Source of the DNA: Candidatus Enteromonas sp.
GTDB taxonomy: Bacteria > Bacillota_I > Bacilli_A > RFN20 > CAG-826
NCBI GenBank assembly: GCA_034089705.1
Contig: JAXDTZ010000013.1
Span: 9,522-73,521 of the forward strand
Reading direction: 5' to 3'
Length of the DNA: 64,000 nt
Below are positions 795 to 63,369 of this stretch, one piece after another (position 1 is the first letter of the stretch; each line of letters starts with the position of its first letter). Made by a program: the position numbers and the translations under genes. Below the pieces are notes generated by a model. That model was not told the DNA's origin. It made no database searches and saw only the letters and a program-made list of their open reading frames with translations.

Positions 795-2576
795 TTATTC
801 GGCGAGTTCTTTCTCGAGCAAGTCGACGAGTTCCTTCATGCGATGGATGACCGCGAGGAAGGGCTCTTTGGTCGTGAGGTCCACGCCCGCCTCTTTGACT
901 TGGTCCACCGGGAACTTCGATCCTCCGGAACGGAGCAAGGAGAGATAGGAATCAAAGGCCCCGGGTTCTTGTTTCTTGACGCGCTCGTAGATGAGCATGG
1001 AGCTCGTGAAGCTCGTCGCGTATTGGTAAACGTAGAACGGGGTGTAGAAGAGGTGGGGGATATAGGCCCAAACCAAGGGCTTATACACTTCTTCGGTGAT
1101 GTCGATCCCGTAATAATCCTTGTAAAGGCGGACCATGATGGCGTTTAAGGCCTCGAAATGGATGGGTTCCCTCGCTTCGGCGAGTTTCGCGGCTTCGTAT
1201 TCGAAATGGCCGAAAAGGGTTTGACGGTAGAAGGTGGAGCAGATTTCGTCGATCGCTTTTTGCAAAAGGGCGATGCGGTCGTTCTTCGAAAGGGAATCGC
1301 TTTGAAGCAGGTAATCGAGGAGGTTGTGCTCATTGAAGGTCGAAGCGATCTCCGCGACGAAGATCGTGTAATCCTGCTTCAATGTCGGCTGGGATTCTTC
1401 GCTATAAAGGGTGTGGATGGAGTGGCCGGATTCGTGGGCGAGGGTGAAGACGTCGTCGAGTTCCCCTTGGAAGTTGAGCAAGATGAAGGGGTGGACGTCG
1501 TATCCCCCGTTGGAATAGGCGCCGGTCCGTTTTCCGGGCGCGCTTTCCACGTCGACGTATCCCGGGGCCAAAACTTCATGGGCTTTTTCTTGGAAGTCCG
1601 AAGGGAAGGATTGGATGGAAGCGAAGAACAAGTCTTTGGCTTCTTCGTAGGTGTAGGTTTTCTCCGAACGAGCGAGTTGGAGGAAGCGGTCGTAGGAACG
1701 GTGCTTCTCCAGGCCCAAGTATTTCCTGCGGAGCTCGTAATATTTCTTTAGCGGGGCGCTGCCTTCTTCTGAGGAAGCGACTTCAATCAAAGAAGTGAAG
1801 ACTTTTTCGGGGATCGCGTCTTTGAAGAGGTGGGTGTCCAAGATGGAGGAATACCCACGCACCTCCTTGAAGGCGAGTTGGGTTTGTAGGCCCAAGTTGT
1901 AGATTTCCCCATAGGTGCTCTTATGATCTTCGTAATAGGAATACAAGGAATCAAAGATGGCCTTTCGGTCTTCCGCTTTCTTTTCCTTTCCAATGAGCGA
2001 GGTCCAGTTCGCCGTGGAAACGACGACCTCCCGTCCATCGCTTAAGGTAACGGTCTTGGGCTTGTAATCGGCGACGGTCAAAATGGAATAGAGGTCCCCG
2101 GCCTCTCCCGAGAGGGGGGCGAAATGGCTGAGCATCTTTTCCTTTTCCGCGTCCAAAACGTGACGTTGCCCGCGGAAGAGCTTTTCAAAATAGAAGGAGT
2201 ATTCCTCGAATTCCGGATGCTTGGATAAGAAAGCCTTGACGTTTTCTTCCCCGTAGGCGAGGACTTCGGGTTCGAAATAGCTGCTCGCGGCAATCAGGCT
2301 TTGGACTGCGAGTTCTACCTTGCTCTCATCGCTTGTGAAGAGGGTGTTTTTGCGGTCGAGGTCCGCGCGCATCGAAGAGAAGAAGGCGAGCTTGATGTAG
2401 GCGAGGGTAATCTTCTTGTCGGTCGACAAGTACCCGGCGAGCCCTTCTTCGGTGGAGATTTTCCCGCTGAAGGCGGAAATGGATGGAATCAGGGCTTTGA
2501 AGGCTTCTAAGTCCGCGAGAAAGGCTTCTTCGCTGGGGTAGAAGACGCTTAAGTCCCATTGTTTGTTTTTGTTCAT
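795..2576 (-). CDS. pepF: oligoendopeptidase F (M3B metallopeptidase)
   Basis: 593-aa ORF with an HEXXH zinc motif (FTLAHESGHSIH) and PepF-like sequence throughout. ATG start, with an AGGAG about 11 nt upstream. Confidence 0.9.
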   Translation of the reverse strand: MNKNKQWDLSVFYPSEEAFLADLEAFKALIPSISAFSGKISTEEGLAGYLSTDKKITLAYIKLAFFSSMRADLDRKNTLFTSDESKVELAVQSLIAASSYFEPEVLAYGEENVKAFLSKHPEFEEYSFYFEKLFRGQRHVLDAEKEKMLSHFAPLSGEAGDLYSILTVADYKPKTVTLSDGREVVVSTANWTSLIGKEKKAEDRKAIFDSLYSYYEDHKSTYGEIYNLGLQTQLAFKEVRGYSSILDTHLFKDAIPEKVFTSLIEVASSEEGSAPLKKYYELRRKYLGLEKHRSYDRFLQLARSEKTYTYEEAKDLFFASIQSFPSDFQEKAHEVLAPGYVDVESAPGKRTGAYSNGGYDVHPFILLNFQGELDDVFTLAHESGHSIHTLYSEESQPTLKQDYTIFVAEIASTFNEHNLLDYLLQSDSLSKNDRIALLQKAIDEICSTFYRQTLFGHFEYEAAKLAEAREPIHFEALNAIMVRLYKDYYGIDITEEVYKPLVWAYIPHLFYTPFYVYQYATSFTSSMLIYERVKKQEPGAFDSYLSLLRSGGSKFPVDQVKEAGVDLTTKEPFLAVIHRMKELVDLLEKELAE

Positions 2577-2687: not shown

Positions 2688-3404
2688 ATGAAGGGCATGA
2701 AACACACCATTTTCCTTCTCTTGGCCATTTCCCTTTTGGCCTCTTGCTCTTCTTCCGAGCCCATTTCTTCCTCTTCCCAAGAAGAAAGCCCAAACGTTTC
2801 CCTTTCCGAAGAAGCCTCTTCCGCCCCTTCCGCGGAGACTTCCTCCTCTTTGGTAGAGACATCGGAACCTTCTTTAGAAGAAACCGAGCCTTCTTCCATC
2901 GAAACGGAATCCTCGATCGAGGAGACGGAGAAACCTTCCGTGGAAATCCCATCTTTAGGAACTATCGTCCTGACCCCCGAAGAATTCCCCGAGAAAGAAA
3001 ACAACGCCTATCCCGTGGATGCGGTCATGGAAAAAGAAGGCTACACCTTCCTTTGTAATGGAATCATGCAAGGGAACAAAAATAGCACCCCCACCTTCCA
3101 GATGAGAAACGGAACCAAAGGCGGGGCTTCTTTGGTCTGCCAAGTCATGGTGAACGCGATCGTGGAAGTCGAATACATGGAAAACATCGGCAACGGAAGC
3201 GATTATTCGGGAACACTCTCTTATGTCGTCGGGGATTCTTTGGCGGCCCTGGAAACGATGTCGACCGAACTCTCTTATGAAGCCTCTTCCATCCAAGGAA
3301 GGCGCGTCGTTTCGTTTGAGGTGCAAAACGCCTATTTCGCGTTATGCAACGAGTCCGCGAACGCTGTCCACGGCACTCGCTTGACCATTACTCCTAAAAA
3401 TTAA
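2688..3404 (+). CDS. lipoprotein of unknown function with a Ser/Glu-rich linker
   Basis: Signal peptide plus lipobox (FLLLAISLLAS|C), then a roughly 70-aa acidic Ser/Glu-rich low-complexity linker and a globular C-terminal half. Its 3' end overlaps the convergent giant lipoprotein gene by 11 nt. Confidence 0.65.
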   Translation: MKGMKHTIFLLLAISLLASCSSSEPISSSSQEESPNVSLSEEASSAPSAETSSSLVETSEPSLEETEPSSIETESSIEETEKPSVEIPSLGTIVLTPEEFPEKENNAYPVDAVMEKEGYTFLCNGIMQGNKNSTPTFQMRNGTKGGASLVCQVMVNAIVEVEYMENIGNGSDYSGTLSYVVGDSLAALETMSTELSYEASSIQGRRVVSFEVQNAYFALCNESANAVHGTRLTITPKN

Positions 3405-6400
3405 GGGGCGGTTTTTCGGTGAAAGGCATGTTTTTCACCGCGTCCAAATAATCCCCGTTTGCGAAGAAGAACTTCTCGAAAATTCCTTTGGAAGTCGAGG
3501 ATATCGCCGAATAGGAATTGTTGACCACCTGGTCGTAGGTTGCCCCGTTGAAGGAAGCGTCGTTCCAGGCGTCGCGATACCCATATCCCCCGGTTTCGGA
3601 GGCGAGGTTCGCCATGGTGATGTCGGGATTGACCACGATGACGCTCACGACGTCGAAACTCCCGGTCAATCGCCGGATGCTCGTTTTCGTTTTCGAACCC
3701 GAAACCACGCGGCATCCCGTGAGGGTGGGGGTGACGTTCATCGAAACGCTTAGTCCGGTCAATTCCTGGATGTCGAGCCCGATGGTCCAAGTCGGTTCGT
3801 CGCCGGTGCCGCCGGAAGAATAGGTGGTCAACGCGTCTTCCCCGTTGATCGGTCCTTTGGTGGTCTCCGCCATTTGGCCGTTTGGATAGACTTGGTCGTA
3901 GACGTCCTTGTCCATCGCCATCATGTAGAAAAGGATCCAATCGAGCATGTTCGCCGTAAAATCGCTGCCCGAAACCTTCAATTCCTGGATTTCATGGTAT
4001 GTTTTCTTGTTCCACAAAATCCCCGTGGTCCAAGTCTGGTAACGCCGGAGCAACAAAGTCCCCACCGTGTCTTTCCCGTCCGTATGGTAGAAGAATTCGG
4101 TGGTGGTTTTCCTAGGGATCGCGGTGAAGACGGCCAAATCGATCTTGGGAAGTTCCATTCGCCCGTACACATTGACTTCCGCCCCATCGAGGGTGATGAA
4201 CGCGTCGAGGGGGATGGAATTGATGGGGATGGAGAACCCGAGTTTGAAATTGAGTTTCAATTCGCCGTTTAAATGGTAGGTGGTAAGGGAATTCGATTCC
4301 GTCACTCCTAACTGCATGGTGTCGATCACGTGGGACAGAAGCGGGGTCAAGGAAGAGAAATCGGTGAAGGAAGAAAGGGAAGGGTTCGGCCCGAAGTTCG
4401 CGTGCAACGCATCGAAGCCCGAAGCGTTTTTCGCGGAAAGGTCGATGTCGAATTCCTCGATCGTCAAAGCGATGTAGATTTCGCTGAGGCTATCTTCATT
4501 CCCCGATTTGGTGAAAACCTCCACTTTGGTCAAGGCTTTTTCCATGACGAGGGGGTCTTGTCCGTCCCGATGGAACCTCTTTTCCCCGAAATGGAGTTTC
4601 ACCGTCAAATCCTCCGCAAGGCCAAACAAGGTCTTGGGGAAAACGACGGTCGTGACGTCGGGGGCGATGGAAAGGGAAGAAATGAGGTCGCTGGAGAGCG
4701 CGTGGAGGAAATGGCCCGAAGTGATGTCGGAAATTAGCGAGGCGGAACTCGCCCCCGAAAGCAGGCCGGTCAAGCGCTTGAACCGGGGATCGGCGTTCCC
4801 GCTTAAGGATTCCACGACCCCCAGCAGGGAATTGAGGGAATGGATGCTCATCCGCCCTTGGAGAGGGGAACTGCTCGCCCCTTCGCTATGGTATTTCAGG
4901 AACATTTGGTTATCGAGGGCGTCGTCTTCGCTCACTTCTGGACCAGAGACGTCCACCCCGACGTAATGCTTCTCGTAATAGGTGTCCATTTTGTTGGTGA
5001 TCGCTAGGCTCCCGCTTCCGAGTTGGTCTTGGAGGGAAAAGGCGAAGGATCCGGAGAATTCGGTTCCCTGTTCCACGCGGGAATAGGAGGACACCGATGT
5101 GGCGCTCTCAGTGCCAAGTTTCAGGATATAACCTTCGATGGAGGCGGAGGCTTCTAAAGAAGGAACGAACACGCCGAGCTGCTCCGTCAACGAGGGAAGA
5201 TGCGATAACTCCTGGTATTCTTCCTTTCCTTCGAGGCGGATCAAGGAAAAATCGGTGAGGTCGATGGTCCCCTCCAAAGTGAAGAAGGCGAATTGGGCTT
5301 CGTGGAAGGCGATGCGGGCCAAAGGCAAGGAAGGATCGCCCGAAAAGGCGATGTCCATGCTGCCGCTTAAACCGGCTTTTTCGAGATTCAATGAAAGAAG
5401 GACGGATTCGTTTTGGGAAGACAAAGTGTCCAAAGCCTCGAGGATGGATTCGTAATGCCCTTCGCTCAATCCCTTCCCAAATTCGCTTTTTTGGAGTTCT
5501 TCGATTTGACGGAGGATCGAATCGAGGGAGGACAAGAGGTTCGACATGACGCTGCCATCCCCCGAAGAAGAGGCGCTTCCCGGCAAGGAGAAACCATCGA
5601 ACTGCCCGATTAAGGAATCCAAGGTCACTTTGTTGGTTTGGATTTTCACCGCGTCGTTGAGGTTGACGTAGATGCCTTTGTCGTTCTCCGGCAAGTTCGC
5701 GACTTCTAAGCCGATGCGGTTTTGCTGCCCATTCGGCGCGAAAGACACGCTATCCCCTTCTTTGCTTGCCTCCAGGTAAGCGAGGGTGATGTCCATCCCA
5801 ATTTGGTCGAGAGCCCAAGAGCTCATGTCCACGGACAAACCCCCTTCGATGGTGAGGCCTTCGTTGACCTCTTCCCTTCCGAAGGTGGTGTCGGTTCCCG
5901 GGATCGCGTCCTCGTGATGGGTGATCGAAAGGTCCATGTCGAGGGAGAAATCCTGGTTCCCAAGGAACCGGGCAAGGCGTTTGATGAGCCCGATGGAATC
6001 GGTTAAGGGGAGATAAGAGCTGGCATCGCTGGGGGGATTCCATTCCAAGGGTCCCACTTTCGAAAAGCAAGAAGAACGGATCCGAAGTCGGCTTTCCGCG
6101 GAGAACTCCATCCGGGAGGCAGTCGATAAGACCGAAGGGGCGTCGATCCCCGCAAACGAGTAATCGGAGGTGGAACGGAGGCCGATCTCGTAGACGGTGC
6201 CCCCTTCTTGCAACTGCATTGGCCAGATGAAATAGGGTTTCCCGTCGACTCGGGTTTCAAACACGCGGTCCAAAGAAGAGGCAAGGACCCCCCAGTCCCA
6301 CTGGAAAGAAGAAGAACCGGAAAGGTTCACGTCTTCCTCGGACAAGACCCCCATGATGTTATCGATGATCCACGAGAGTTCGCCGTATTCGAAATTGACG

Positions 6401-6942
6401 TCCCCGTTCATTTCGTCGTCCCGGCCCCCCAAATACGGGGAGAGGTCCACTTGGTAACGGAGGGAATCCCCTTGGAATGCCTCGTCGAGGTTATCCTTGG
6501 GGAAAGCGACTTTGAAGAAGAACTGGTCGTCGTGGAGGAACAAGCCCAAGAAACGGGAGACCCCGTTGTAGGATATGGGCGCGTCCAAGGCCAAGGACAG
6601 GTTATGGACAGACAAACCATCCAGGCCGAAAGCCAAGGAAGAAGAAGAGAAGTCGATTTGGTTGGTAACCCTTTCGACGTTCCCGTCTACGTTCCCGTCT
6701 AGTTCGAAAATCCCCTCTTCGATTTGAAAGGTCACCCCTCCTTGCAAAGAGGCGGTGAAATCCCCCAGGAATTTCGATTTGGCTTCTTCCCCGTCGACAA
6801 ACGCGACGGAAGAGGAACTCTCCACGATCGGTTCCTTGCCCCCGTCGTTGATGAGGCGGCTTGGGGCGCAAGAAGAAAGCGCCAAAAAAAGGGAAGCAAA
6901 GGAGAAGAGGAATGGCGTCTTGGTTCTGCGGAAGCGTTTCAT
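3394..6942 (-). CDS. giant surface lipoprotein (1182 aa), paralog of 7888..11616
   Basis: Uninterrupted 3.5-kb ORF. The N-terminus MKRFRRTKTPFLFSFASLFLALSS|CAP is a signal peptide plus lipobox. It aligns collinearly with the 1242-aa neighbour (for example NFEYGELSWIIDNIMGVLSE vs SYEYGDLDFVIHDILEILSE). No enzymatic motif recognised. Confidence 0.8.
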   Translation of the reverse strand: MKRFRRTKTPFLFSFASLFLALSSCAPSRLINDGGKEPIVESSSSVAFVDGEEAKSKFLGDFTASLQGGVTFQIEEGIFELDGNVDGNVERVTNQIDFSSSSLAFGLDGLSVHNLSLALDAPISYNGVSRFLGLFLHDDQFFFKVAFPKDNLDEAFQGDSLRYQVDLSPYLGGRDDEMNGDVNFEYGELSWIIDNIMGVLSEEDVNLSGSSSFQWDWGVLASSLDRVFETRVDGKPYFIWPMQLQEGGTVYEIGLRSTSDYSFAGIDAPSVLSTASRMEFSAESRLRIRSSCFSKVGPLEWNPPSDASSYLPLTDSIGLIKRLARFLGNQDFSLDMDLSITHHEDAIPGTDTTFGREEVNEGLTIEGGLSVDMSSWALDQIGMDITLAYLEASKEGDSVSFAPNGQQNRIGLEVANLPENDKGIYVNLNDAVKIQTNKVTLDSLIGQFDGFSLPGSASSSGDGSVMSNLLSSLDSILRQIEELQKSEFGKGLSEGHYESILEALDTLSSQNESVLLSLNLEKAGLSGSMDIAFSGDPSLPLARIAFHEAQFAFFTLEGTIDLTDFSLIRLEGKEEYQELSHLPSLTEQLGVFVPSLEASASIEGYILKLGTESATSVSSYSRVEQGTEFSGSFAFSLQDQLGSGSLAITNKMDTYYEKHYVGVDVSGPEVSEDDALDNQMFLKYHSEGASSSPLQGRMSIHSLNSLLGVVESLSGNADPRFKRLTGLLSGASSASLISDITSGHFLHALSSDLISSLSIAPDVTTVVFPKTLFGLAEDLTVKLHFGEKRFHRDGQDPLVMEKALTKVEVFTKSGNEDSLSEIYIALTIEEFDIDLSAKNASGFDALHANFGPNPSLSSFTDFSSLTPLLSHVIDTMQLGVTESNSLTTYHLNGELKLNFKLGFSIPINSIPLDAFITLDGAEVNVYGRMELPKIDLAVFTAIPRKTTTEFFYHTDGKDTVGTLLLRRYQTWTTGILWNKKTYHEIQELKVSGSDFTANMLDWILFYMMAMDKDVYDQVYPNGQMAETTKGPINGEDALTTYSSGGTGDEPTWTIGLDIQELTGLSVSMNVTPTLTGCRVVSGSKTKTSIRRLTGSFDVVSVIVVNPDITMANLASETGGYGYRDAWNDASFNGATYDQVVNNSYSAISSTSKGIFEKFFFANGDYLDAVKNMPFTEKPPLNF

Positions 6943-6962
6943 AATGCGGGGTTACTCCCCCT

Positions 6963-6979
6963 TATGCATTATATGCATA
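6963..6979 (-). promoter_or_regulatory. perfect 7-3-7 palindrome (TATGCAT-ATA-ATGCATA) enclosing a TATAAT -10 box; candidate operator/promoter of the 1182-aa lipoprotein gene
   Basis: On the minus strand the site reads tatgcaTATAATgcata, with TATAAT at 6968-6973. It lies about 25 nt upstream of the ATG at 6942. A weak -35, GTGACT (6990-6995), sits at a 16-nt spacer. Confidence 0.5.
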
Positions 6980-7051
6980 CCTCCCTTGGAGTCACTCTCC
7001 GGAGAATCATCCCTGCTCTTTGAATCGGAGAATGGGAAGTCTAGGGCAAAG

Positions 7052-7089
7052 AAAAAGAGCGAATTCGACTACCTGTCCTCGCTCTTTTT
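7052..7089 (-). terminator. hairpin overlapping the stop codon of the XRE gene (terminator-like)
   Basis: 11-bp stem aaaaagagcga (7052-7062) pairs with tcgctcttttt (7079-7089) around a 16-nt loop that contains the stop codon (7069-7071). The 3' arm is U-rich on the minus strand. Confidence 0.4.
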
Positions 7090-7752
7090 GTTGGTTTTGG
7101 GTTTGATTGGCTTTTCTTTTTTGGGCTTGGGGCTCTTCCAGTTCATCAACAGGATGATGATGACTTGGATGGGGATGCCGATCGCGAGGATGTACCAAAT
7201 GTTCTCTTGGGAGGAGGCGAAGAAAGCGAAATGAAAGCAAAAGCAGAGGAGAAGGGACCAAACGAAGACCGATCCCATCACGAATTGTGCCTTGCGGTTA
7301 TGGAAGAAATATTTGATTTGCAAAATCAAGAGGAAAGAAGACACGGGGACGATCCAAGGGAAGATGCCGAAGAGTTGAACGGAAATAGCTTCCTTCTTGA
7401 AGAGGATTTGGCTGAGGAAGATGGAGATGGCGATCAAGACGATGACCATCACGGTCAAACCCATGATTGACGCCCGGTTGGCATCCACCGCCGGGTCCTT
7501 GGCTTGGTTTTTCTCCACGACAGCGAGGGCATCCCCTTCTTCGTGGGAGGTGACGAGGTATTCCAAAGGCACTTCGAAATAGGCGCTGAAATCCATTAGG
7601 ATGTCCACGCTCGGGCAGCTGTAGCCGAGTTCCCATTTGGAGATGGATTTGTCACTGTAATGGATTTCGTTCGCAAGCTCTTGTTGAGTCAGTCCTTTGG
7701 CTTTCCGCAAAGCGGCGATGTTGTTTCCGACGATGGCCGATAGGTTTTCCAT
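7069..7752 (-). CDS. XRE-family HTH transcriptional regulator fused to a multi-pass membrane domain
   Basis: N-terminal HTH_3-type motif (LRKAKGLTQQELANEIHYSDKSISKWELG) followed by about 4 predicted TM helices and a Lys-rich C-terminal tail. Confidence 0.8.
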   Translation of the reverse strand: MENLSAIVGNNIAALRKAKGLTQQELANEIHYSDKSISKWELGYSCPSVDILMDFSAYFEVPLEYLVTSHEEGDALAVVEKNQAKDPAVDANRASIMGLTVMVIVLIAISIFLSQILFKKEAISVQLFGIFPWIVPVSSFLLILQIKYFFHNRKAQFVMGSVFVWSLLLCFCFHFAFFASSQENIWYILAIGIPIQVIIILLMNWKSPKPKKEKPIKPKTNKKSEDR

Positions 7753-7850
7753 AGCGAAATGATTTTACCTTTGGAGCAAAAAAAATTAAAGTGAGGATTG
7801 TTCGCTCTTTTTGTTTTGCGACAAAGGGTTGCCGCGCCAAAAAGAGCAAG

Positions 7851-7880
7851 AAAAAGCCGTTACCATGGATCGGTAACGGC
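7851..7880 (-). terminator. rho-independent terminator after the 1242-aa gene
   Basis: Minus strand reads gccgttacc-gatccat-ggtaacggc followed by TTTTT. Stems are at 7856-7864 and 7872-7880, 8 nt past the stop at 7888. Confidence 0.8.
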
Positions 7881-7887
7881 GAAACGA

Positions 7888-10800
7888 TTACGCGGAGAGG
7901 CCGAGGTAGTAGTTCCGGTGGCCTTTGTTTTCCTCGTCGATGCCATGCCTCCAGGCTTTGCCGCCTTCCTTGTCGGTCGATTCTGCGTAGACGCCAACGG
8001 GGGAATAGGTGGCTTCGTCTTCGAAGTGGAGGAAGTTGCTTTCAAACGCGGCTTGCCCCTTTTCCCATCCGTCGAGGTATTGGCCCGCGACCAGGTTGTT
8101 GAGGCGAAGTTCGACTTTGGCGCGCAAGATGGACAAGCGGTTGCCTTGGTCCCCTTCCACCCCGACGCCGAGGTCGATGCGGACGAGGTTCAAAGCGTGG
8201 AAGGCCCCGAATTCCCCGCCTTCGATGTGGAGGACGATGTCATCGAGGATGTTCACACCCAAGAGGGAGTTGACGTTCAAGGTGAGGTCGAAGCTCACGA
8301 TTCCGTCTTCGGAAACGCTCTTTTCGAAGTTCTTGAAGAGGTCTTCGACGTGGATGGCTAGGGCCCGGGATGCCGGCTCGGTGTTCGAAGCGACTTCGAT
8401 GGAGTTCTCTTCCTTGGCGAAGAAGGATTCGTTCACCCCGAGGAAGTATTGGAGCATGTAGCTGAGCGCGTCGTCTTTGAAGGCGCCTTCGCGGTTGAGC
8501 TTGACCGAATCTTCGACGTTGGCAAGGCGGCCGTAATCGGAGTGGCGGGTCATGAGGAGCTCGCTGCGGATTTCCCCTTCGTCGTTTTCGATTCCGTCGG
8601 AATAATAATAGAAGGATGCGTCGCGTTGCCCGCCGATTTCCAGTTCGCGGAAGTAATGGGGGTCATCGGGGGCGTTCAACCCGCGGATGACGGGGATGTC
8701 GTTGAGCTCGCCATGGAGTTTGACTTGGGCCCCGCGGACGTAGGCTTGGAGGTTTGCTTCCGCGAGCTTGGCTTCGTAATCCCCCAGGGCGATCGAGGCC
8801 GCACCGGTCAGATCGTAGGTGCTATGGCCTTGGCCGTTTTCCATTCCGAGGGTCAGGGTGCTGACGAGGTAATCCCCAAGGCTCGCGATGCCCGTGAAAT
8901 CGATGTAGGAGGATTCGTGGTTGAGGAAGGAGAACTTCGTGTCCACGGTCACTTCTTCAAAGGAGAGGGAGAGGTCCACTTTCGTGGCTTGGCCTGGTTC
9001 CCCATTGACGAGGGACACGCCGATGTTTTGAAGTTTGGCTTCGTCGAAATGGAGGGAAAGAGCGATTTCCGCGTTCATTCCGAAGGGGCTTCCGTCGAGG
9101 ACGAAGCGATCGTTCGTCCCGTTGATGGTCGCTTCCTTCAAGAAGGAATAGTTCGCGATCGCGAAATAGTTCCCGGAAGTGAGGTCGGTGATGAGACTCG
9201 CTTCCGCGGGGGAAGAGAAGATGCGGGAGATGCGCTCGAAACGGCTATCGAAATTGCCAAACGAAGAGATGATCGGGGAAATCGCATCCACCGCGCTGGA
9301 GAGGTGGATTTTGCCGTTCAACCCGTTCAAATTCTCGGGATTGTCGCGGGCTTCGATGTCCGCGGAAGTGTCTTCGTTCAGCGAATCGTAATGGAAATAG
9401 ACGGCGTTGGAAGTCGAGGAGAAATCCTCTTCGCTATTGGCGATGTCGAGCACCACGTGGTGATCTTGGTAATACGTTGTCGTATGCTCTTGGAGGGTTA
9501 ACGAAACTCCCCCGTCGATCAAAGCGGGGTTGGTCGCCCCTTCTCCGGCAGCTTTGGAGAAGTCGAGGTTGATGGCTCCGGAGATGTCCATTCCGGTTTG
9601 CTTTTCAGGATCGTTGTAGACGTCCATCGTCCCTTCTTTGCGCACCGTCCCGGACAACGCGATGGAGGCTTGCTTGCCTTTCACGATCGAAGCGATCGGA
9701 TCGACCAAGGAAGGAAGTCGGTTCATCGAGGAATAGTTAGCCAAATCGCTCCGCGCTTCTTCGCTGAGGGGAGAATAGCCCTTGGTTTTGAGGGACAAAT
9801 CGAGGGTCAAAGTGTTGAGGGCAAGGTTTTCGAGGCGGAGGTTCAGCAAGGAATTGTCTTCGTTGCCGTTGAGTTCCAAAACGACGTTCGCCCCATCGAA
9901 TCCGAGGTTGTCCAAAGAAAGCACGATTTCGATGCGGTTATCTTCGATGGTGACCTTGGAAAGCATTTCCACGATGGCTTCGTAATGCTTTTCCTTGAGC
10001 CCGGCGATCAAAGCGGGTTCGTTGAAATCCTCTTGCCCTTTGAGGGTCTTGATGACTTGCGTCACTGTGTCCAAGACGCTTTCGAGTTGGGCGTCGGTGG
10101 TTTGCTCTTGCACGGTTTCCCCGGGGGTGAGGCTTTCGGCGGTGGAAGAGAATTTGCCGATCACTTCATCGAGGACCGTTTTGGTGGTGGAGGCTTTTAG
10201 CACATCCCCGAAATTGAGGTAGCAGGAGGCGTTGGAAGAATCGGAGTTATCGACGAAAGCGCTCAGCATTTGCTGGTTTTCGCCCAGTTGCCAGATTCCG
10301 TTTTCGTTCTTCTCGTATTGGGCGAAGCCGAGACTCGCCGCGGCGCTATTGAAGTTCACGCCTTTGATGTTGCCGTTATCGAATTGATAGGAGAGATCGA
10401 CGTCTCCGCTGAGGCTCAAACGGGCTTTTTCTTCCACTCCGGATTTAGAGAAGGCAGTCAAGGTTCCCGGTTTGGAATCTTCTTTATGGAGGAGGTCCAC
10501 GTCAAGTTCCAATCCGAACTTGGGGGTGGCGACAAGAGAAGCGACGCGACGGAACAAGGCGAGGGAGTCGTCGAGTTGAGGGTAGCTCGCCCAGGAATCG
10601 GGGACGGTCCAATCGTAGGTTTCCCCGCTCGCGGCGGTTTGGACGCTCGCAGAAAGGGAAAGCGTCATGCCGTTTCCGAATTCTTGGGAAGAGGCTTCGC
10701 TTAAGGCGCTGGGGATATCCACGCGGTTGCAATTCAAATTCTCATCCGCGCCAAGGCCGATGGACAAGGTGGTGGACCCCAAGGGCAGATCGAGGGTGAA

Positions 10801-11616
10801 GTATTTGCTGCCGTTAAAATCGGCTTCCGCGATCGTGTTGAGGGCGTTCATGATGTCGTCGGTCGAGATGGAAGAAGAGGAAGAAGCCTCCCCTCCTTCG
10901 GGAGCGGGGGTCGTTTGGTTCCCACTGCCGGTAATCAACGATTCGATTTTGCCATAGGTGTCGATGTTGATGCCGCCTTCGGACAAAATCTCGAGGATGT
11001 CGTGAATCACGAAGTCCAAATCCCCGTATTCGTAGGAGAGGTTGCCCCCGGTCACGGGATCGGTTTCCTCACTGACGTAACGCTTGACGTCGACTTGGTA
11101 CCCCGCGGTCCAATCCCCGTCGTCCCCATCGATGTCGCCGATGTTGAAATAGAGGTTCTTGGAAGTTTCCCCATCCCCGAGGAGCCCGAGGTTGAGTTCG
11201 CGCTTGAGCCCGTTGTATTCCAAAGGCAACTCGGCTTTGAGGTTAATCCCCGAAAGGGAGAGTTCCTCCAGGGACAAGGCGATCGAGGCTGGCTTGCTTT
11301 CGATGGAACGGATGTGGTTGTCGTAACGGACTTCTTGCCCGTCCACCGTCTTGGCGGCCCCGGGAATCATGAAATCCAGAGAATTCACTTCCAAGGTGAT
11401 GCCGCTGGTGGCGCTGCCGATGAGTTGGTTCACGAAGCGCTGGGGAATGCTGAGATCCCCGTTGCCGTTGGAAATCGGCCCCCCGACCTGATCGATGACG
11501 GTGCTTTGGGGAAGGAGGAGGAACACCCCTCCCGCGGACAAAGCGAAGGTCGCGGCGAAGCCCCCGCTTAACAGCAAGGCGCGTTGCCATTTGGATGATT
11601 TGACGTTCTTTTTCAT
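7888..11616 (-). CDS. giant N-terminally anchored envelope protein (1242 aa), paralog of 3394..6942
   Basis: 3.7-kb ORF. The preferred start is the ATG at 11616 (MKKNVKSSKWQRALLLSGGFAATFALSAGGVFLLL, a signal anchor), preceded by AGGGG. The ORF track's GTG at 11640 is the alternative. Collinear similarity to the 1182-aa lipoprotein. Confidence 0.8.
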   Translation of the reverse strand: MKKNVKSSKWQRALLLSGGFAATFALSAGGVFLLLPQSTVIDQVGGPISNGNGDLSIPQRFVNQLIGSATSGITLEVNSLDFMIPGAAKTVDGQEVRYDNHIRSIESKPASIALSLEELSLSGINLKAELPLEYNGLKRELNLGLLGDGETSKNLYFNIGDIDGDDGDWTAGYQVDVKRYVSEETDPVTGGNLSYEYGDLDFVIHDILEILSEGGINIDTYGKIESLITGSGNQTTPAPEGGEASSSSSISTDDIMNALNTIAEADFNGSKYFTLDLPLGSTTLSIGLGADENLNCNRVDIPSALSEASSQEFGNGMTLSLSASVQTAASGETYDWTVPDSWASYPQLDDSLALFRRVASLVATPKFGLELDVDLLHKEDSKPGTLTAFSKSGVEEKARLSLSGDVDLSYQFDNGNIKGVNFNSAAASLGFAQYEKNENGIWQLGENQQMLSAFVDNSDSSNASCYLNFGDVLKASTTKTVLDEVIGKFSSTAESLTPGETVQEQTTDAQLESVLDTVTQVIKTLKGQEDFNEPALIAGLKEKHYEAIVEMLSKVTIEDNRIEIVLSLDNLGFDGANVVLELNGNEDNSLLNLRLENLALNTLTLDLSLKTKGYSPLSEEARSDLANYSSMNRLPSLVDPIASIVKGKQASIALSGTVRKEGTMDVYNDPEKQTGMDISGAINLDFSKAAGEGATNPALIDGGVSLTLQEHTTTYYQDHHVVLDIANSEEDFSSTSNAVYFHYDSLNEDTSADIEARDNPENLNGLNGKIHLSSAVDAISPIISSFGNFDSRFERISRIFSSPAEASLITDLTSGNYFAIANYSFLKEATINGTNDRFVLDGSPFGMNAEIALSLHFDEAKLQNIGVSLVNGEPGQATKVDLSLSFEEVTVDTKFSFLNHESSYIDFTGIASLGDYLVSTLTLGMENGQGHSTYDLTGAASIALGDYEAKLAEANLQAYVRGAQVKLHGELNDIPVIRGLNAPDDPHYFRELEIGGQRDASFYYYSDGIENDEGEIRSELLMTRHSDYGRLANVEDSVKLNREGAFKDDALSYMLQYFLGVNESFFAKEENSIEVASNTEPASRALAIHVEDLFKNFEKSVSEDGIVSFDLTLNVNSLLGVNILDDIVLHIEGGEFGAFHALNLVRIDLGVGVEGDQGNRLSILRAKVELRLNNLVAGQYLDGWEKGQAAFESNFLHFEDEATYSPVGVYAESTDKEGGKAWRHGIDEENKGHRNYYLGLSA

Positions 11617-11636
11617 GTTGATACCCCTGTCAATGT

Positions 11637-12596
11637 TCACTGGTTATATCCGTAGGCTTTTAGCAAGGCCGCTTCGCTACTTGGATAGGCCGCGCTAGGA
11701 GAAGAAGGAGAAGGAATGGAGGCTAGGGAAGAATCCCCCGCGACGTAGACGGTCGTCATGCTGCCTTCGCAATCCGATCCGATTCCGTTGCTCAAGGTCG
11801 CGTGGTATTTCTCGTAACTCTTGAAGTAACGGAGGTCCAAGTCTTTGGTGAAACTCCATTGGAGATGGACGTATTCGAAGTTCGGGAAGTCCTTGAGGTC
11901 GCTGATGGTCTTCATCTGATGGATGTACCGCAGAGTCGATGTCTTCGGATCGGCTTCGAATTCCACCTGGATGTTCCCCAATTCGTCTTTGCTGACTTTG
12001 GTGAGGCCCCTGCCCGAACGGTCGACGGAAGAGTCCGTCTTGTCCGAGATGAGGTAGATGAGGGGCTCGCTGACCTTTCGCCCCATCGAGGAAGCGTATT
12101 CTTCATTGGTCACGTCCACGGGAGAATTCACCCCGTAGTTGGAGGATTTGCCCCAATACTTCGTCGTGGTTTCCCCTTTTTGGTACATGCGGTTGTAGAG
12201 GGCGACGAAGGAAGAGAAGGAATTGGATTCCTCAAAGTATTCCTCGCCGTTTTTGATGTTCCGGGATTGGATGGCTTGATCGACGAGGCCCATCGCCTTG
12301 GATGTCCCGACCCCTTCGGCGTAAGCGTATTCGTTTTGCCGGTATCTCTCGTAGGCGACGTAGACCATTTCGAAGGGTTTCATGTGGGCGGCGAAATCCC
12401 CGCCCATCTTCTTCGCGCTTTCGTAAGAGGCCAGCGCGGTCTTCCCATCGGGCACGTAGGCGCTCGCGTCCCCGGAAATGGAGAACAGGGTCGGTTTCAG
12501 TTTTTGGTGAACGGTCAACCCCGTCGCCGCGCCGCAAAAAAGGGCCATGGCGAGCAAGGTGGGAATCGTGAAGCTTTTGCTGACGAATTGACTCAT
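11637..12596 (-). CDS. membrane-anchored or secreted protein of unknown function (319 aa), first gene of the giant-protein operon
   Basis: N-terminal hydrophobic anchor (FTIPTLLAMALFCGAATGL), a GGAGAG RBS and an ATG at 12596. The stop lies 20 nt before the next gene's ATG. No family recognised. Confidence 0.7.
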   Translation of the reverse strand: MSQFVSKSFTIPTLLAMALFCGAATGLTVHQKLKPTLFSISGDASAYVPDGKTALASYESAKKMGGDFAAHMKPFEMVYVAYERYRQNEYAYAEGVGTSKAMGLVDQAIQSRNIKNGEEYFEESNSFSSFVALYNRMYQKGETTTKYWGKSSNYGVNSPVDVTNEEYASSMGRKVSEPLIYLISDKTDSSVDRSGRGLTKVSKDELGNIQVEFEADPKTSTLRYIHQMKTISDLKDFPNFEYVHLQWSFTKDLDLRYFKSYEKYHATLSNGIGSDCEGSMTTVYVAGDSSLASIPSPSSPSAAYPSSEAALLKAYGYNQ

Positions 12597-12914
12597 TGGA
12601 CTCTCTCCCCCATTTGGGCAATTTCATCATAATGGCTGCTTCCGTCAAGTCACTCTACTTCGCGCTTTTTTCGCCCGCGAATTCGTAAACTTCGCCCCTC
12701 CTGGCTCGAAAGAGGGGCTCTCGAATCCGGAGAAACGGAAAAAGAAGGGAGAACGGGGGTGGAATTCCCGTATGATTCCTAGAGAGCAATCGATTCGCGT
12801 TCTCGTTTTTCCGTGGGCTGGATTCGGTAAGAAGCGTGGTGGCAACTTTTGGTTGAGTTTCCGAAAAAGCAAAGCAAAATCGGTACAATGGGAGCCTAAA
12901 GAGAATATTGTCCC

Positions 12915-12985: not shown

Positions 12986-13486
12986 ATGGATTATCAGGTT
13001 GGACAACACGTCTTTCACTCTCATTGTGGCGTTTGCTTGATCAGCGATATCGCTCCTCTTTCCCCCGCGGAAGAGACCCTTTATTACGTCTTGCGGCCTC
13101 TCTATGGGGAAGACAAAGGCAACATCGTCCGCGTCCCCGTCCTCAACTGCGGTTCCCTCCGCAAACCCGACACCAAGGAACGGGTCGGGGACATCATCGC
13201 TTCTTGGCCGGATATTCGCGAAGACCTTTACATCAAGGATTCCAAAGTCCGCAAAGCCGCCTACGACCGAAGCCTCAAATCCGGATTGATCGAGGATTTG
13301 GCCCCACTTCTAGAAGGCGCCTACCAACGCAAGAGACGCGATGGGCACCTCAATTCCATGGACGCCCTCTTCGTCTCCCGCGCGGCTCCTGTGGTATATG
13401 GGGAACTCGCCTTCGTCCTAGACATCCCCTTCGACATGGTTCCCCAATACATCATGGACCATTGCCTCGCCCTCAATTCCCTTTGA
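12986..13486 (+). CDS. CarD/CdnL-family RNA-polymerase-binding transcriptional regulator
   Basis: AGGAGG RBS at 12975-12980. The N-terminus (VGQHVFHSHCGVCLISDI...LYYVLRPL...IVRVPV...LRKP) follows the CarD_CdnL_TRCF pattern. Length 166 aa. Confidence 0.7.
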   Translation: MDYQVGQHVFHSHCGVCLISDIAPLSPAEETLYYVLRPLYGEDKGNIVRVPVLNCGSLRKPDTKERVGDIIASWPDIREDLYIKDSKVRKAAYDRSLKSGLIEDLAPLLEGAYQRKRRDGHLNSMDALFVSRAAPVVYGELAFVLDIPFDMVPQYIMDHCLALNSL

Positions 13487-13494
13487 TGAATCGG

Positions 13495-13525
13495 CCGCTT
13501 GAAAAACTCCAGGCGGCTTTTTTCT
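13495..13525 (+). terminator. rho-independent terminator
   Basis: gccgcttg (13495-13502) pairs with caggcggc (13511-13518), including one G.U pair, followed by T6. Confidence 0.7.
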
Positions 13526-13541
13526 TTGTTTTTCGCGCATG

Positions 13542-13567
13542 AAAAAAGCTCGGTCTTACGCCGAGCA
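13542..13567 (-). terminator. rho-independent terminator
   Basis: Minus strand reads gctcgg-cgtaaga-ccgagc followed by TTTTTT, 20 nt downstream of the stop at 13587. Confidence 0.7.
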
Positions 13568-13586
13568 TTTTCCGAATTGGAATGAA

Positions 13587-14063
13587 TTAGGCTTTGAAGG
13601 AGACGTAAGTCCCGTAGAGCCCGAGGACTCCGCCGAGCACGGCGAAGATCGCCGGAAGAAGGGAGCCAACGCCCAAAGCGAGATCCTTTTCGTCGTAGAT
13701 CGGAGCCCCGCCGGTCGTGGCGGCGCCCAAGAAGATCGATTTGGTCAAGAAGAGGATGATCGCCGCGGCGACAAGGAACAAGGTCGAAAGGCCGAGGATT
13801 CCTCCGCCGATGCGTCCCGGGAAGAAGGCGCCGATGAGGGCGAGGGAAGCGGCGACGATGAGGAAGGAGAAGGCGACGCTGAGCGCGGGCATTTCGTTGT
13901 AGCCGTATTTTTCCGCGTGGAACATCAAGGTGTAAACCGAACCGCGGGTATCGGGGATGCCGTTCACGTCGGCGAAAGCGTTCCCGAATAAGCCGAAGAT
14001 GGCGACGATGGAGCAGACCAGCATCACGATGCCGATCAATCTTTTCATGTGTTTGTTTCTCAT
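13587..14063 (-). CDS. hypothetical multi-pass membrane protein
   Basis: 158-aa ORF with 4 hydrophobic, Gly-rich segments. No family recognised. An alternative ATG lies at 14048. Confidence 0.6.
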   Translation of the reverse strand: MRNKHMKRLIGIVMLVCSIVAIFGLFGNAFADVNGIPDTRGSVYTLMFHAEKYGYNEMPALSVAFSFLIVAASLALIGAFFPGRIGGGILGLSTLFLVAAAIILFLTKSIFLGAATTGGAPIYDEKDLALGVGSLLPAIFAVLGGVLGLYGTYVSFKA

Positions 14064-14181
14064 ACTAAAAACCTACCGAGGGAAAGTATAAACTTCTCTT
14101 CCTTGAAGAGCAACCCAAAGAATTGGGAACCCCAAAGAGATGTTTTGCTAAGAAAATCAAGGCAATCCACCGCGAATTCGA

Positions 14182-15537
14182 CTACCGTTCTTCGCTGTTT
14201 TTCGCTTGTGAGGCTTTCTTTTTGCTTTGAAAGAGTAAGAAGAAGATGGGAATGAGGGAGAGTATCGCCGCGGCGAACACCACGATCCACATGCCGCGGT
14301 CGGGGGATTTCTCGACCTGCCCGAAGTCGTTGACGCGCGTGGAAGAGAAGACCAAACTCGAAATATTGCTGCCGATCACCATGGGGAGCATGACGGCGAA
14401 GACCATGCGCACGCTTTGGAAGGCCCCCACGTTTTCTTTGGGAGTGTGGTCGCGAAGGGATGCCCCAAGGCTCGAAGTGCCCATGAGGTAGCCCAGGATC
14501 AAGATGGTCCCAAAGACGATGCAAGGAACGAATTGACCTTGGACGAAATAAAGCCCGATCGCCCCGATCGAAAGCAAAATGGCGCTCGGGATCAAAACGG
14601 CGAACTTGCCAAATCTCGTCAAGAACGCCCCGGACAGCAACGTTAGCAAAGCCCCCAAGCCCATGATGATGCCGAAAGCGAGGTAGAAGTTCATCCCCGC
14701 GAAGGATTCCATCCCCTGGAAGTAAACGAGGAAATAAGGCAAGAAGGCGTCGACGGCGATGTTGAAACACAAAAACGCGAGGAGCGAAAGGTAGAACAAA
14801 GGGTTCTCCTTGACGGTTCGGGGCAAAAACCCAACGAACATTTGCTTCCAATAATGCCGGTCCCGGGTGGGAACGAGGCTGTCTTTGGGCAGCAAGAAGA
14901 AACTCGCGACCCCTATCGCGCTGGTAAGCGCCCCAAACACCAAGAAGAAGAGGAACCACGGGCCGGCGATTTCCCCGGGGGATTTGCTGGCATCGGGAAT
15001 TCCGAGGGCCATGCCAACGAGCATCATGAGGGCCAAGGCCAAAAGGGGCATGACGGAGAGGACGCTTTCCACAAACGGACGGTTTTTCTCGTTGGTTTTA
15101 TCGGTGACGAAGGCGCTAAAAGCCGCATCGTTGCCCATGCTCCCGAAGAAGGTCATGACGCAATCGACGATCAGGTTCATGATGCCGACGAACAATACGG
15201 CGTTCGTGCTTCCTACGCCGAATACCGTTTCCATGTTGGGCAAGGACATCACCCCGAAAAGGAAGACGAACAAGCCCCAAATGGTGTACCCAACGGAGAT
15301 GAAAATCTTCCGTTTGCCTTTGAGATCGCTCCAAGCTCCGACCAAGAAAGTCGTGATGGTCGCGACCACCGCGCTTCCGCTGGTCATCCAGTTGATGTGG
15401 TCGGTGTTGTGGGATTGGGAAAAGACCCAAAGATTGATGTAGTTGTTTTCAATCGCCCACGCGATTTGCCCGACCATCCCGATGAGGAGAAGGGAAACCC
15501 ATAACCGGGCGCCGAGCTTGTTGTTTTTCTGGTTCAT
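14182..15537 (-). CDS. MFS-type transporter
   Basis: 451 aa with about 12 TM segments and an MFS-like loop motif (GAWSDLKGKRK) after TM2. Substrate not inferable. Confidence 0.8.
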   Translation of the reverse strand: MNQKNNKLGARLWVSLLLIGMVGQIAWAIENNYINLWVFSQSHNTDHINWMTSGSAVVATITTFLVGAWSDLKGKRKIFISVGYTIWGLFVFLFGVMSLPNMETVFGVGSTNAVLFVGIMNLIVDCVMTFFGSMGNDAAFSAFVTDKTNEKNRPFVESVLSVMPLLALALMMLVGMALGIPDASKSPGEIAGPWFLFFLVFGALTSAIGVASFFLLPKDSLVPTRDRHYWKQMFVGFLPRTVKENPLFYLSLLAFLCFNIAVDAFLPYFLVYFQGMESFAGMNFYLAFGIIMGLGALLTLLSGAFLTRFGKFAVLIPSAILLSIGAIGLYFVQGQFVPCIVFGTILILGYLMGTSSLGASLRDHTPKENVGAFQSVRMVFAVMLPMVIGSNISSLVFSSTRVNDFGQVEKSPDRGMWIVVFAAAILSLIPIFFLLFQSKKKASQAKNSEER

Positions 15538-15597
15538 GCTGTTGATTATAGCCTTTTTCGCTTCGCTCAGTTATCCTATTTGAAACAGGAGCATCCC

Positions 15598-16257
15598 ATG
15601 AACCCACAAACGCTTTCCGTCCTCTTTTTGGTTCTTTTTGCATTTTCCACCTTGGGAGAACTCGTTTGTTGCTTCATGGAATGGGAAACCCCGAGGAAAG
15701 CCATCAAGCCTTTCTGCGTGGCTTTCTTGGCGGTTTCCTTCCTGCTTGTTCGTCCCGACCTCTACCTCGTGGGGATCGGCTTGATCCTCGGGGCCATCGG
15801 GGATTTGCTGCTCGTTTTTAAGCATAAAGTCTGGACTTTCGTGGTCGGCGCCTTTTCCTTTTTGCTCAATCACGTTTGCTTCATCCTCGCCTACATCTTT
15901 CTCCTTCCATCCCGCCCGATTGGCTTATGGATTTCCATGGCCGTTCTCGTGGTCGCCGTGTTCCTTTCGGGATTCTTCGCCCTTCGAAAAGTCATCAAAA
16001 CCCCGCCCCTTCGCGCGGGAGGGGTTCTCTATTTCGCCGCCATTCTTTGCGATTTGCTGCTCGCCATATTCGCCTTGGGGCTCACCCAAAACCCCGCGTT
16101 CATCAGCAGCATTGTCGGAATGGTTTTCTTCGTTGGATCGGATGTTTATCTCACGAAAACCCTGTTCGTCCGGGATGATCGGCGCAGGGATTTCTACATC
16201 ATGCTCACGTATTTGCTCGCCCAAGGCCTCGTGGCCCTCGGGTTTTTCCTTTGCTAA
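15598..16257 (+). CDS. YhhN-family (lysoplasmalogenase-like) membrane protein
   Basis: AGGAG lies 7 nt before the ATG at 15598 (the ORF track's TTG at 15580 is less likely). Multi-pass membrane protein with YhhN-like segments (ILGAIGDLLLV, FFVGSDVYL). Confidence 0.55.
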   Translation: MNPQTLSVLFLVLFAFSTLGELVCCFMEWETPRKAIKPFCVAFLAVSFLLVRPDLYLVGIGLILGAIGDLLLVFKHKVWTFVVGAFSFLLNHVCFILAYIFLLPSRPIGLWISMAVLVVAVFLSGFFALRKVIKTPPLRAGGVLYFAAILCDLLLAIFALGLTQNPAFISSIVGMVFFVGSDVYLTKTLFVRDDRRRDFYIMLTYLLAQGLVALGFFLC

Positions 16258-16847: not shown

Positions 16848-16849
16848 GG

Positions 16850-27625: not shown

Positions 27626-27827
27626 AGTTAACTCCTTTTCAGTTAGTGAAATCATAAAGTCAAGAAGTGGATTTTGCAAATCAAAAGAAACCAAATAAGA
27701 TTCGATAAATGCTTTCATATCAAATTATTTGCATGTATTTTGGCGCTATTTTGGCACTTACATAGTAAATTTTCGCGTGCGCGAAGTCCTGTTTCGCGTC
27801 AAAATAGTACTCAGGAGGCATTTTTCT

Positions 27828-63361: not shown

Positions 63362-63369
63362 AGATCCTC

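Follow-up and report, generated by a model that had tools for sequence, protein, structure and literature searches.

We describe a four-gene module in a 64,000-nt stretch of DNA from Candidatus Enteromonas sp. (GCA_034089705.1, JAXDTZ010000013.1), hereafter the window. The module encodes a small membrane protein of 319 amino acids (aa; p319), two giant paralogous proteins (giants A and B), and a regulator, XRE-TM, in which an XRE-type helix-turn-helix (HTH) domain is followed by four transmembrane (TM) helices. The four genes are chromosomal and vertically inherited. p319 and giant A, through a TM helix, and giant B, through a lipid, are tethered by their N-termini at the outer face of the cell membrane. 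We favour, tentatively and at somewhat less than an even chance, the reading that they form a surface apparatus handling lipids or other hydrophobic ligands under a BcrR-like, membrane-embedded one-component regulator. This reading is based on the anchors, the synteny, the selection on the genes, the fold predicted for p319, a recurrent operator motif, the conserved TM region of the regulator, and the lipid-gene neighbours of distant copies. Additionally, it is based on the retention of the module in very small genomes (1.2 Mbp reported for Ca. Enteromonas). The genes of the module and the terminator between them are as follows.

11637 to 12596, minus strand: p319 (319 aa), a bitopic membrane protein whose gene opens the upstream transcription unit
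7888 to 11616, minus strand: giant A (1242 aa, 134 kDa, pI 4.4), signal-anchored, beta-rich and extracytoplasmic
7856 to 7880, minus strand: terminator-like hairpin (GCCGTTACCGATCCATGGTAACGGC + TTTTTCTT), which closes the p319-giant A unit
7069 to 7752, minus strand: XRE-TM regulator (227 aa), with an N-terminal HTH_3, then an acidic linker and four TM helices, and a C-terminal tail rich in Lys
3394 to 6942, minus strand: giant B (1182 aa, 129 kDa, pI 4.5), a lipoprotein with the lipobox LALSS|C and a paralog of giant A

The locus had been singled out in a first-pass annotation of the DNA, and every open reading frame of the layout proposed there was found at its place. The terminator that it had put between giant A and the regulator was seen as the hairpin listed above, with a 10-bp stem containing 6 G-C pairs, followed by TTTTTCTT. 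Called mechanically, the reading frame of giant A would begin with a GTG at 11640; the start preferred here is the ATG at 11616 (MKKN...), with which the N-termini of 31 orthologs agree. The gap between p319 and giant A is then 20 nt in the window; of 32 loci, 30 have a gap of 5-32 nt. A single transcription unit holds p319 and giant A in tight coupling. Giant B either comes right after them or is served by a promoter of its own, and XRE-TM forms a separate transcription unit in some loci.

For the distribution of the module, a pattern scan was run over one genome per GTDB species. The scan resulted in 38 loci, all from metagenome-assembled genomes of uncultured gut or rumen Bacilli, with labels that include Mollicutes, Erysipelotrichaceae, Ca. 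Enteromonas and Ca. Alloenteromonas. A repeat of the word-indexed homolog search with the family alignment gave no additional members. Ca. Enteromonas belongs to the order RFN20 and the family CAG-826, and one species has a 1.2-Mbp genome (PMC8035907). The family is predicted to lack peptidoglycan and the order to lack the srtA/B sortases (PMC10868615); no sign of an outer membrane was found for the host lineage. Across the 38 loci, the set of p319, giant A, giant B and XRE-TM is retained wherever the contig permits, with near-strict single-copy synteny, and both giants are intact in nearly all such loci. Homologs of p319 were found at 31 RFN20-type loci and at three distant loci (hmmsearch E=1e-63 to 1e-84 for the latter), and the XRE-TM gene was found at 33 of the 38. 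Two gene orders were seen: the regulator separates the giants (A-XRE-B) in 14 loci and follows them (A-B-XRE) in 21. The flanks are conserved as well, with genes for a major facilitator superfamily (MFS) protein and a CarD-like protein on one side and PepF on the other. The module, with the pairing of a 319-aa gene and a giant that the first-pass annotation had proposed to look for in other genomes, is conserved in 38 species and recurs in distant relatives.

Selection on the four genes was estimated as the ratio of nonsynonymous to synonymous substitution rates (dN/dS) by the Nei-Gojobori method in eight closely related locus pairs, giving 30 comparisons. The ranges were 0.04-0.23 for p319, 0.05-0.13 for giant A, 0.06-0.14 for giant B, and 0.02-0.12 for XRE-TM. 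In 29 of the 30 comparisons the ratio fell between 0.02 and 0.14, the exception being p319 in the pair L001/L002 (L numbers are our labels for loci), with 0.23. Such housekeeping-like values show strong purifying selection on all four genes; they refute decay and speak against surface antigens under diversification. Decay of the paralogs had been named beforehand as an outcome that would overturn the proposal, and it is effectively ruled out by the conservation and by dN/dS well below 1. Giant A had no tblastn match on plasmids or phages, and the giants matched no PADLOC or PHROG family; p319 gave only a sub-threshold match to KwaB (PADLOC, E=0.0078). A link to anti-phage defence or to a prophage was rejected, as the only real PADLOC and PHROG matches were to the generic HTH of the regulator.

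The giants are collinear paralogs, aligned by BLASTP over ~1070 residues at 24% identity (E=5e-66). The alignment includes every motif block on which their whole-length paralogy had first been proposed. Both are acidic (pI 4.4-4.5, in agreement with the earlier description), high in Ser, Leu, Gly, Asp and Glu, and almost devoid of Cys. Hydropathy places a single N-terminal TM segment in giant A at residues 14-35, and an F-F-L-L-P-Q motif at this anchor is kept in most orthologs. The lipobox LALSS|C reported for giant B is present, and its Cys is kept in nearly all giant-B orthologs. The type of anchor is conserved in each branch, A-type giants having an N-terminal TM segment and B-type giants a lipobox. 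Both lack LPXTG, as first noted, and the sole tandem array found was a trivial one of 12 nt x 2.5, in line with the reported lack of repeats. The one internal duplication seen is weak and lies in giant B (residues 218-336 against 498-602, hhalign probability 87%).

No database family accounted for these proteins. The giants and p319 had no Pfam or NCBIfam match at E<=1 and no PDB match by sequence (phmmer) or profile (hmmsearch), which bears out the earlier statement that they belong to no recognisable family. Pfam showed no SLH, cell-wall-binding or known adhesin domain in the giants, and no profile of a characterised adhesin or S-layer family, the other outcome named as contrary to the proposal, matched in Pfam, NCBIfam or PDB. 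Beta-amylase matches at E=1.3, obtained in the PDB profile search with family alignments, were regarded as noise.

Structure prediction, which had been suggested as a check, gave a known type of fold for p319 and no convincing match for giant A. The AlphaFold2 model of giant A covers residues 46-1242 and was built from a 16-sequence alignment. It has a mean predicted local distance difference test score (pLDDT) of 65.8 and a predicted template-modelling score (pTM) of 0.42, with antiparallel strands of up to ~20 residues and interspersed helices. Searched as a whole chain against PDB with Foldseek, it matched generic beta-sheet and barrel proteins (TbpB, LptD, porins, microsomal triglyceride transfer protein) at template-modelling scores (TM-scores) of at most 0.08-0.10. 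Local matches of higher probability were to S. aureus SAOUHSC_02783 (0.90) and a haemophore (0.80). SAOUHSC_02783 and microsomal triglyceride transfer protein are two weak matches that the models of giant A and p319 share; a literature search on SAOUHSC_02783 gave no result. A TbpB-like lipoprotein, which had the best E value (7e-5), was rejected for giant A on TM-scores of 0.06-0.10 and a root-mean-square deviation above 30 A. Nothing in the Foldseek viral library matched giant A at E<=1e-3. On these models, the giants are predicted to be beta-rich and without a convincing structural match, and they may represent a new protein fold.

For p319, hydropathy places one TM helix at approximately residues 9-29. 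In the orthologs this helix is preceded by Lys/Arg-rich tails, which indicates an N-in/C-out topology. The AlphaFold2 model, built from a 25-sequence alignment, is a confident one, with a pLDDT of 89.5 and a pTM of 0.83; in it, a short helical region and a sheet of ~11 antiparallel strands accompany the TM helix. The top Foldseek match in PDB was LprG of M. tuberculosis (E=7e-5, probability 1.0, TM-score 0.47). Other matches were the sponge ependymin-like protein EPD-BCP1 (TM-score 0.54), NE2245 of the LolA superfamily, SAOUHSC_02783, LolA3, LolB and Csa1B. Taken together, LprG, NE2245, LolA3, LolB and EPD-BCP1 were matched with probabilities of 0.9-1.0 and target-normalised TM-scores of ~0.3-0.54. 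The ectodomain is thus predicted to be an open beta-barrel of the LolA/LprG kind, an unclosed antiparallel sheet flanked by helices. Many aromatic or hydrophobic residues are invariant in the family (F121, Y224, M228, F240 and Y264 among them) and are compatible with a hydrophobic cavity in the predicted fold. p319 is unrelated to the giants by profile-profile comparison (probability 0.8%).

The description of the regulator as an XRE-type HTH joined to about four TM helices agrees with the Pfam matches (HTH_3, E=3.8e-14; HTH_19, E=1.2e-9) and with four hydrophobic segments found by hydropathy at residues 89-207. The HTH (Y-S-D-K-S-I-S-K-W-E) and the TM region are both kept in 22 aligned orthologs, including distant ones, and residues S161, W165 and P194 are invariant across the lineages examined. 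Gauntlett et al. 2008 are said to have described BcrR of Enterococcus faecalis as an N-terminal XRE-type HTH with four C-terminal TM helices. From this architecture we infer that XRE-TM is a one-component membrane sensor with BcrR-like domains. A tblastn search of plasmids with XRE-TM for an annotated bcrR relative gave only generic HTH regulators with 25-36% identity.

Both units of the module in the window have a promoter-like site and a candidate operator next to it.

12719 to 12733, minus strand: candidate operator before p319, TCTCCGGATTCGAGA, with one mismatch to TCTCC-N5-GGAGA
12626 to 12653, minus strand: promoter-like site of p319-giant A, GTGACT-16-TATGAT
6995 to 7031, minus strand: candidate operator region before giant B, with TCTCCGATTCAAAGA at 7031 to 7017 (two mismatches)
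7006 to 6995, minus strand: 12-bp string TTCTCCGGAGAG with the perfect palindromic core TCTCCGGAGA; its last base overlaps the -35 hexamer of giant B
6963 to 6995, minus strand: promoter-like site of giant B, GTGACT-16-TATAAT, with 10 of 12 matches
6963 to 6979, minus strand: 17-nt palindrome TATGCATATAATGCATA, which overlaps the TATAAT -10 box of giant B

The p319-giant A and giant B promoters have the string AGAGTGACT and an equal spacing in common. Each unit is preceded by the conserved palindrome TCTCC-N5-GGAGA, which lies at the -35 hexamer or upstream of it. With at most one mismatch allowed, the 693 kb of related loci contain 113 matches, of which 40 are found in the 200 nt before module genes, with a spacing that varies little; the background rate in these loci predicts ~0.02 matches per 200-nt window. 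In at least 24 of 31 loci a copy lies ahead of p319, at a distance of ~60-150 nt (mostly 60-111 nt) from the start. Where the regulator gene separates the giants, giant B has a copy as well in ~12 of 15 loci; in the related loci where the two giants adjoin, no copy was found before giant B. The distant loci have related TTCTCY...GTAGAA repeats between the XRE and p319 genes. The position of the candidate sites at or upstream of the -35 hexamer suggests activation.

The 17-nt palindrome, put forward in the first-pass annotation as a binding site to be tested, exists exactly at 6963 to 6979, and it or a variant recurs in L003, L004, L020, L028 and L037. It was rejected as the main operator, as it overlaps the -10 box and recurs only in some lineages; TCTCC-N5-GGAGA is preferred because, unlike this palindrome, it recurs before both units across the clade. 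A perfect TCTCCGATTAGGAGA was also seen at 2601 to 2587 (minus strand), ~10 nt before the pepF start. It overlaps the GGAGA ribosome-binding site of pepF and was not accepted as a third operator; it may be due to chance or to co-regulation of pepF.

An exhaustive hidden Markov model search of 1.84 billion representative proteins resulted in 242 family members at E<=1e-3. The members looked up (ten in this set) were annotated as 'hypothetical protein' or unnamed. Seven distant members were traced to contigs, with GC contents of 30-46% (four computed), and the module as a whole spans genomes of 30-56% GC. Five of these seven distant loci contain a divergently transcribed XRE-TM gene adjoining the module, a p319 homolog, and one or two giants. 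The split into a TM-anchored and a lipoprotein giant is already present in the distant L040 and L041. In L042 (30% GC), the second giant (13418 to 17452) has a textbook prepilin-type leader (MKKRSGFTVIELIIVIAIMG...), so the giant family can use a pseudopilin-like anchor; the gene at the end of this locus has a weak N_methyl match.

One distant relative, P0089 (4042 aa; L039, 8001 to 21597), has its central module repeated many times, with eight CBM_5_12 domains inserted, which indicates that the giant scaffold can display binding domains. In L039, from the very fragmented NCBI assembly GCA_024712465.1, the gene is followed by a Lipase_3 lipoprotein gene, and there is no adjacent p319 or XRE-TM gene. 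When 11 distant or oversized members were scanned with Pfam for fused domains, only P0089 had any (CBM_5_12); sub-threshold matches to GntR, an intein and a folate carrier were dismissed as chance. Genes for LPG_synthase_TM and a GT4 glycosyltransferase adjoin the module in L042, L043 and L045, and genes for PAP2, a GT2 glycosyltransferase and an acyltransferase lie directly downstream of it in L044. These lipid-gene neighbours are suggestive and inconclusive.

In the mechanism that we favour, XRE-TM would bind the palindromes and probably activate both units on a signal sensed in the membrane. The half-barrel of p319 would take up or hand over a hydrophobic ligand at the membrane surface, for which a lipid, a sterol, the acyl chains of lipoproteins or a bile-type amphiphile are candidates. 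The giants, probably paired, would make up an extracellular extension by which the ligand is captured, stored or passed on. The whole would be a device for lipid scavenging, lipid trafficking or membrane maintenance in a wall-less cell, made from proteins unrelated to P116, LprG-Rv1410 or Lol. Reliance on lipid extractors at the cell surface, such as P116, is known from wall-less bacteria (PMC10023570). In a more specific form, the module would be a new envelope apparatus of wall-less, reduced-genome Bacilli. It would be an extracellular machine for lipid acquisition or membrane homeostasis that comprises a new beta-rich giant fold, a shuttle resembling LolA and a membrane-embedded transcription factor responding directly to the lipid state of the membrane, and it would be an analog of P116 without evolutionary relation to it. 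We regard this form as possible and rather doubtful. Of the ideas in the first-pass annotation, a dedicated block of membrane-tethered extracytoplasmic proteins with a membrane-bound XRE regulator is supported by the anchors, the conservation and the dN/dS ratios. Its speculation on lipid or ligand transfer gains real support from the predicted fold of p319 and the distant lipid-gene neighbours, and this support is indirect.

Several observations weigh against a lipid-handling role. The lipid-gene neighbours amount to about three independent distant contexts, and at the 38 RFN20-type loci the flanking genes tracked (PepF, CarD-like, MFS) are not lipid genes. The TM-scores of p319 are borderline (0.33 query-normalised, at most 0.54 target-normalised), and 25 members of the p319 family did not match Pfam LolA, LolB or LppX_LprAFG at E<=10. 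A LolA-like fold is no proof of lipid binding, since the LolA-like GerS of C. difficile has a non-carrier role, activating an amidase (bioRxiv 10.1101/2025.01.13.632879). The operon contains no gene for a membrane transporter, and the nearby MFS gene sits in a wholly syntenic neighbourhood. The structural matches of the giants are unconvincing (TM-score<=0.08), and the model behind them is moderately confident (pLDDT 65.8, pTM 0.42). The binding of XRE-TM to the candidate operators is proposed on the basis of comparative genomics.

As the main rival reading, the same surface proteins would form a conserved coat, or a scaffold that binds host, mucus or particles, with p319 as a partner in assembly, anchoring or chaperoning. 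The giants have the general look of such proteins, being very large, acidic, Ser/Thr/Gly-rich, beta-rich, almost Cys-free and N-terminally anchored, and lineages without peptidoglycan or sortases need surface proteins tethered to the membrane (PMC10868615). The eight CBM_5_12 modules of P0089 fit this role, as does the fact that LolA-like folds can regulate proteins, as GerS does (bioRxiv 10.1101/2025.01.13.632879). However, dN/dS ratios of 0.05-0.14 in the giants are low for exposed adhesins or antigens, and the giants have no tandem repeats, LPXTG, or known adhesin or S-layer domains. The near-strict single-copy synteny also contrasts with the multigene variation typical of mollicute surface proteins, and the conserved operators, together with a membrane sensor dedicated to the module, point to conditional expression, against a constitutive coat. 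The adhesin proposed in the first-pass annotation, taken as a classical adhesin or variable antigen, therefore fits poorly with the purifying selection and the lack of repeats; a coat or scaffold in the wider sense is conceivable, and we judge it improbable on balance. By analogy with resistance operons controlled by BcrR, the module could also be a shield against membrane stress or toxic compounds. In that case, the regulator would sense bile acids, antimicrobial peptides or lipid-II-type antibiotics and induce surface proteins that sequester them, with p319 as the binding module. The XRE HTH with four TM helices is the layout reportedly found in BcrR-type proteins. The gene lies beside its presumed targets, and BcrR is described as a one-component transmembrane regulator (PMC10269533, PMC3968067). 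The organisms live in the gut or rumen and, where the family is identified, it is predicted to be wall-less (PMC10868615); the predicted fold of p319 resembles that of hydrophobic-ligand carriers. Against a shield, there is no transporter, the usual effector of such resistance modules, and Pfam, NCBIfam and PADLOC scans showed no similarity to known resistance proteins. Devoting ~9 kb of strongly conserved genes to the module in genomes of ~1.2 Mbp suggests a core function over accessory resistance, and we consider a shield unlikely.

An envelope-spanning bridge that transports lipids between two membranes, of the AsmA/TamB/YhdP, Lpt or VPS13 kind, is far less probable still. The long antiparallel strands in the giant A model and the weak Foldseek matches to LptD-LptE and microsomal triglyceride transfer protein (E ~3e-4 to 8e-4) are what could be said for it. 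These matches have TM-scores of 0.06-0.08 and probabilities of 0.13-0.23 (LptD-LptE, 0.06 and 0.13), and no AsmA, DUF490, LptC/LptA or Chorein domain was matched at E<=1 in Pfam or NCBIfam. The host lineage is monoderm and CAG-826 is predicted to be wall-less, hence there is no second membrane to join (PMC10868615; PMC8035907). With a single membrane and no wall predicted, a bridge is unlikely, and the envelope-spanning machine considered in the first-pass annotation finds no place in cells predicted to be free of peptidoglycan and showing no sign of an outer membrane. Finally, we give next to no credence to the possibility that the genes are decaying, unexpressed or mis-assembled and nothing functional. 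Wherever the contig permits, the giants are intact in nearly all loci, and dN/dS is well below 1. The genes come with promoter-like sites, ribosome-binding sites and a terminator, in a module kept across 30-56% GC.

Three further genes of the window lie around the module.

2688 to 3404, plus strand: Ser/Glu-rich linker lipoprotein (238 aa), which converges on giant B with an 11-nt overlap
795 to 2576, minus strand: pepF, a neighbour of the module in most related loci
14182 to 15537: MFS gene, separated from the module operon by two opposite-strand genes

The coordinates and the 11-nt overlap reported for the 238-aa lipoprotein were reproduced. Its place as a conserved member of the locus did not hold, since a homolog at the equivalent position was found at only one of the 38 related loci, L005. 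In L040, a 474-aa Ser-rich lipoprotein follows the second giant and looks unrelated to the one in the window. Genes for small membrane proteins of the YhhN family, DUF389, TraX-like and Rce1-like CAAX protease types cluster near the module (15580 to 16257, plus strand; 16850 to 17818, minus strand; 19527 to 21292, minus strand). Farther away, a 1140-aa reading frame (27729 to 31151, plus strand) joins two AAA+ ATPase modules (AAA, AAA_lid_6) to a C-terminal trypsin-like peptidase, an unusual fusion. A 1055-aa protein (60296 to 63463, minus strand) has an EAL domain confined to its C-terminus (residues 808-1040), with no assignment for the N-terminal 800 residues. The window also holds an ATP synthase operon (~33.6-40.1 kb), glgC/glgA-like genes (56.5-60.3 kb), a Ser/Thr kinase and priA, which identify it as ordinary chromosome. 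The GC skew is positive to ~22 kb, negative over ~22-60 kb and then positive, and follows the dominant coding strand.

Bacteria of the RFN20 type are common gut inhabitants of humans, livestock and poultry. To our knowledge, none of them has been grown in culture, and their cell surface is uncharted. In genomes with a reported size down to 1.2 Mbp, the module occupies ~9 kb; strong purifying selection maintains it throughout the clade, and it is without annotation in the databases searched. Should it prove to be a device for lipid scavenging or membrane maintenance, it would account for the way in which these wall-less cells build and protect their sole barrier, and it may reveal growth requirements helpful for culturing. 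It would also be a second, independent answer, beside P116 of Mycoplasma, to the supply of lipids in minimal bacteria. XRE-TM and its candidate operator offer a clean, testable case of a transcription factor acting from within the membrane.

Among known systems, P116 of M. pneumoniae is the closest functional analogy for the lipid-handling reading. This large protein, exposed on the surface of a wall-less cell, extracts essential lipids from the environment without ATP (PMC10023570, PMC12487902), and its fold was described as previously unseen (PMC10023570). The giants differ in being beta-rich, with a separate LolA-like partner. They had no PDB sequence or profile match to P116, and P116 was not among the top 50 Foldseek matches of giant A. 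In mycobacteria, LprG-Rv1410 pairs a membrane-tethered LolA-like carrier with a conserved operon that moves surface lipids (PMC6519032, PMC10576003). LprG is the top structural match of p319; however, the partner of p319 is not a transporter, and the MFS gene is non-adjacent, in a generally syntenic region. More broadly, the p319 model shares with LolA, LolB, LprG and ependymin the unclosed antiparallel beta-barrel with helices (Foldseek probability up to 1.0), and with LprG and LolB the tethering to a membrane, facing outward. It differs from LolA, LolB and LprG in that the anchor is a TM helix and not a lipid, there is no profile similarity, the operon has no LolCDE or MFS partner, and the gene is coupled to the giants. 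The giants recall AsmA/TamB/YhdP and LptC-A-D in being very large, beta-rich and N-terminally anchored, with weak LptD Foldseek matches, but they have no Pfam match, TM-scores of 0.06-0.08 and no second membrane to bridge.

XRE-TM resembles BcrR in the layout reported for that protein, in a gene beside its presumed targets, and in palindromes upstream of target promoters, whereas its presumed targets are surface proteins and not an ABC transporter. This likeness is one of architecture and of a generic HTH. BcrR is a one-component transmembrane regulator (PMC3968067, PMC10269533), and XRE-TM falls into this known architectural class. Likewise, p319 is predicted to fall in the known fold class of hydrophobic-ligand carriers, and lipid binding is a prediction from that fold. 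At the sequence level, the giants, p319 and the XRE-TM subfamily are undescribed, and the combination of genes is new, as the fold of the giants may be.

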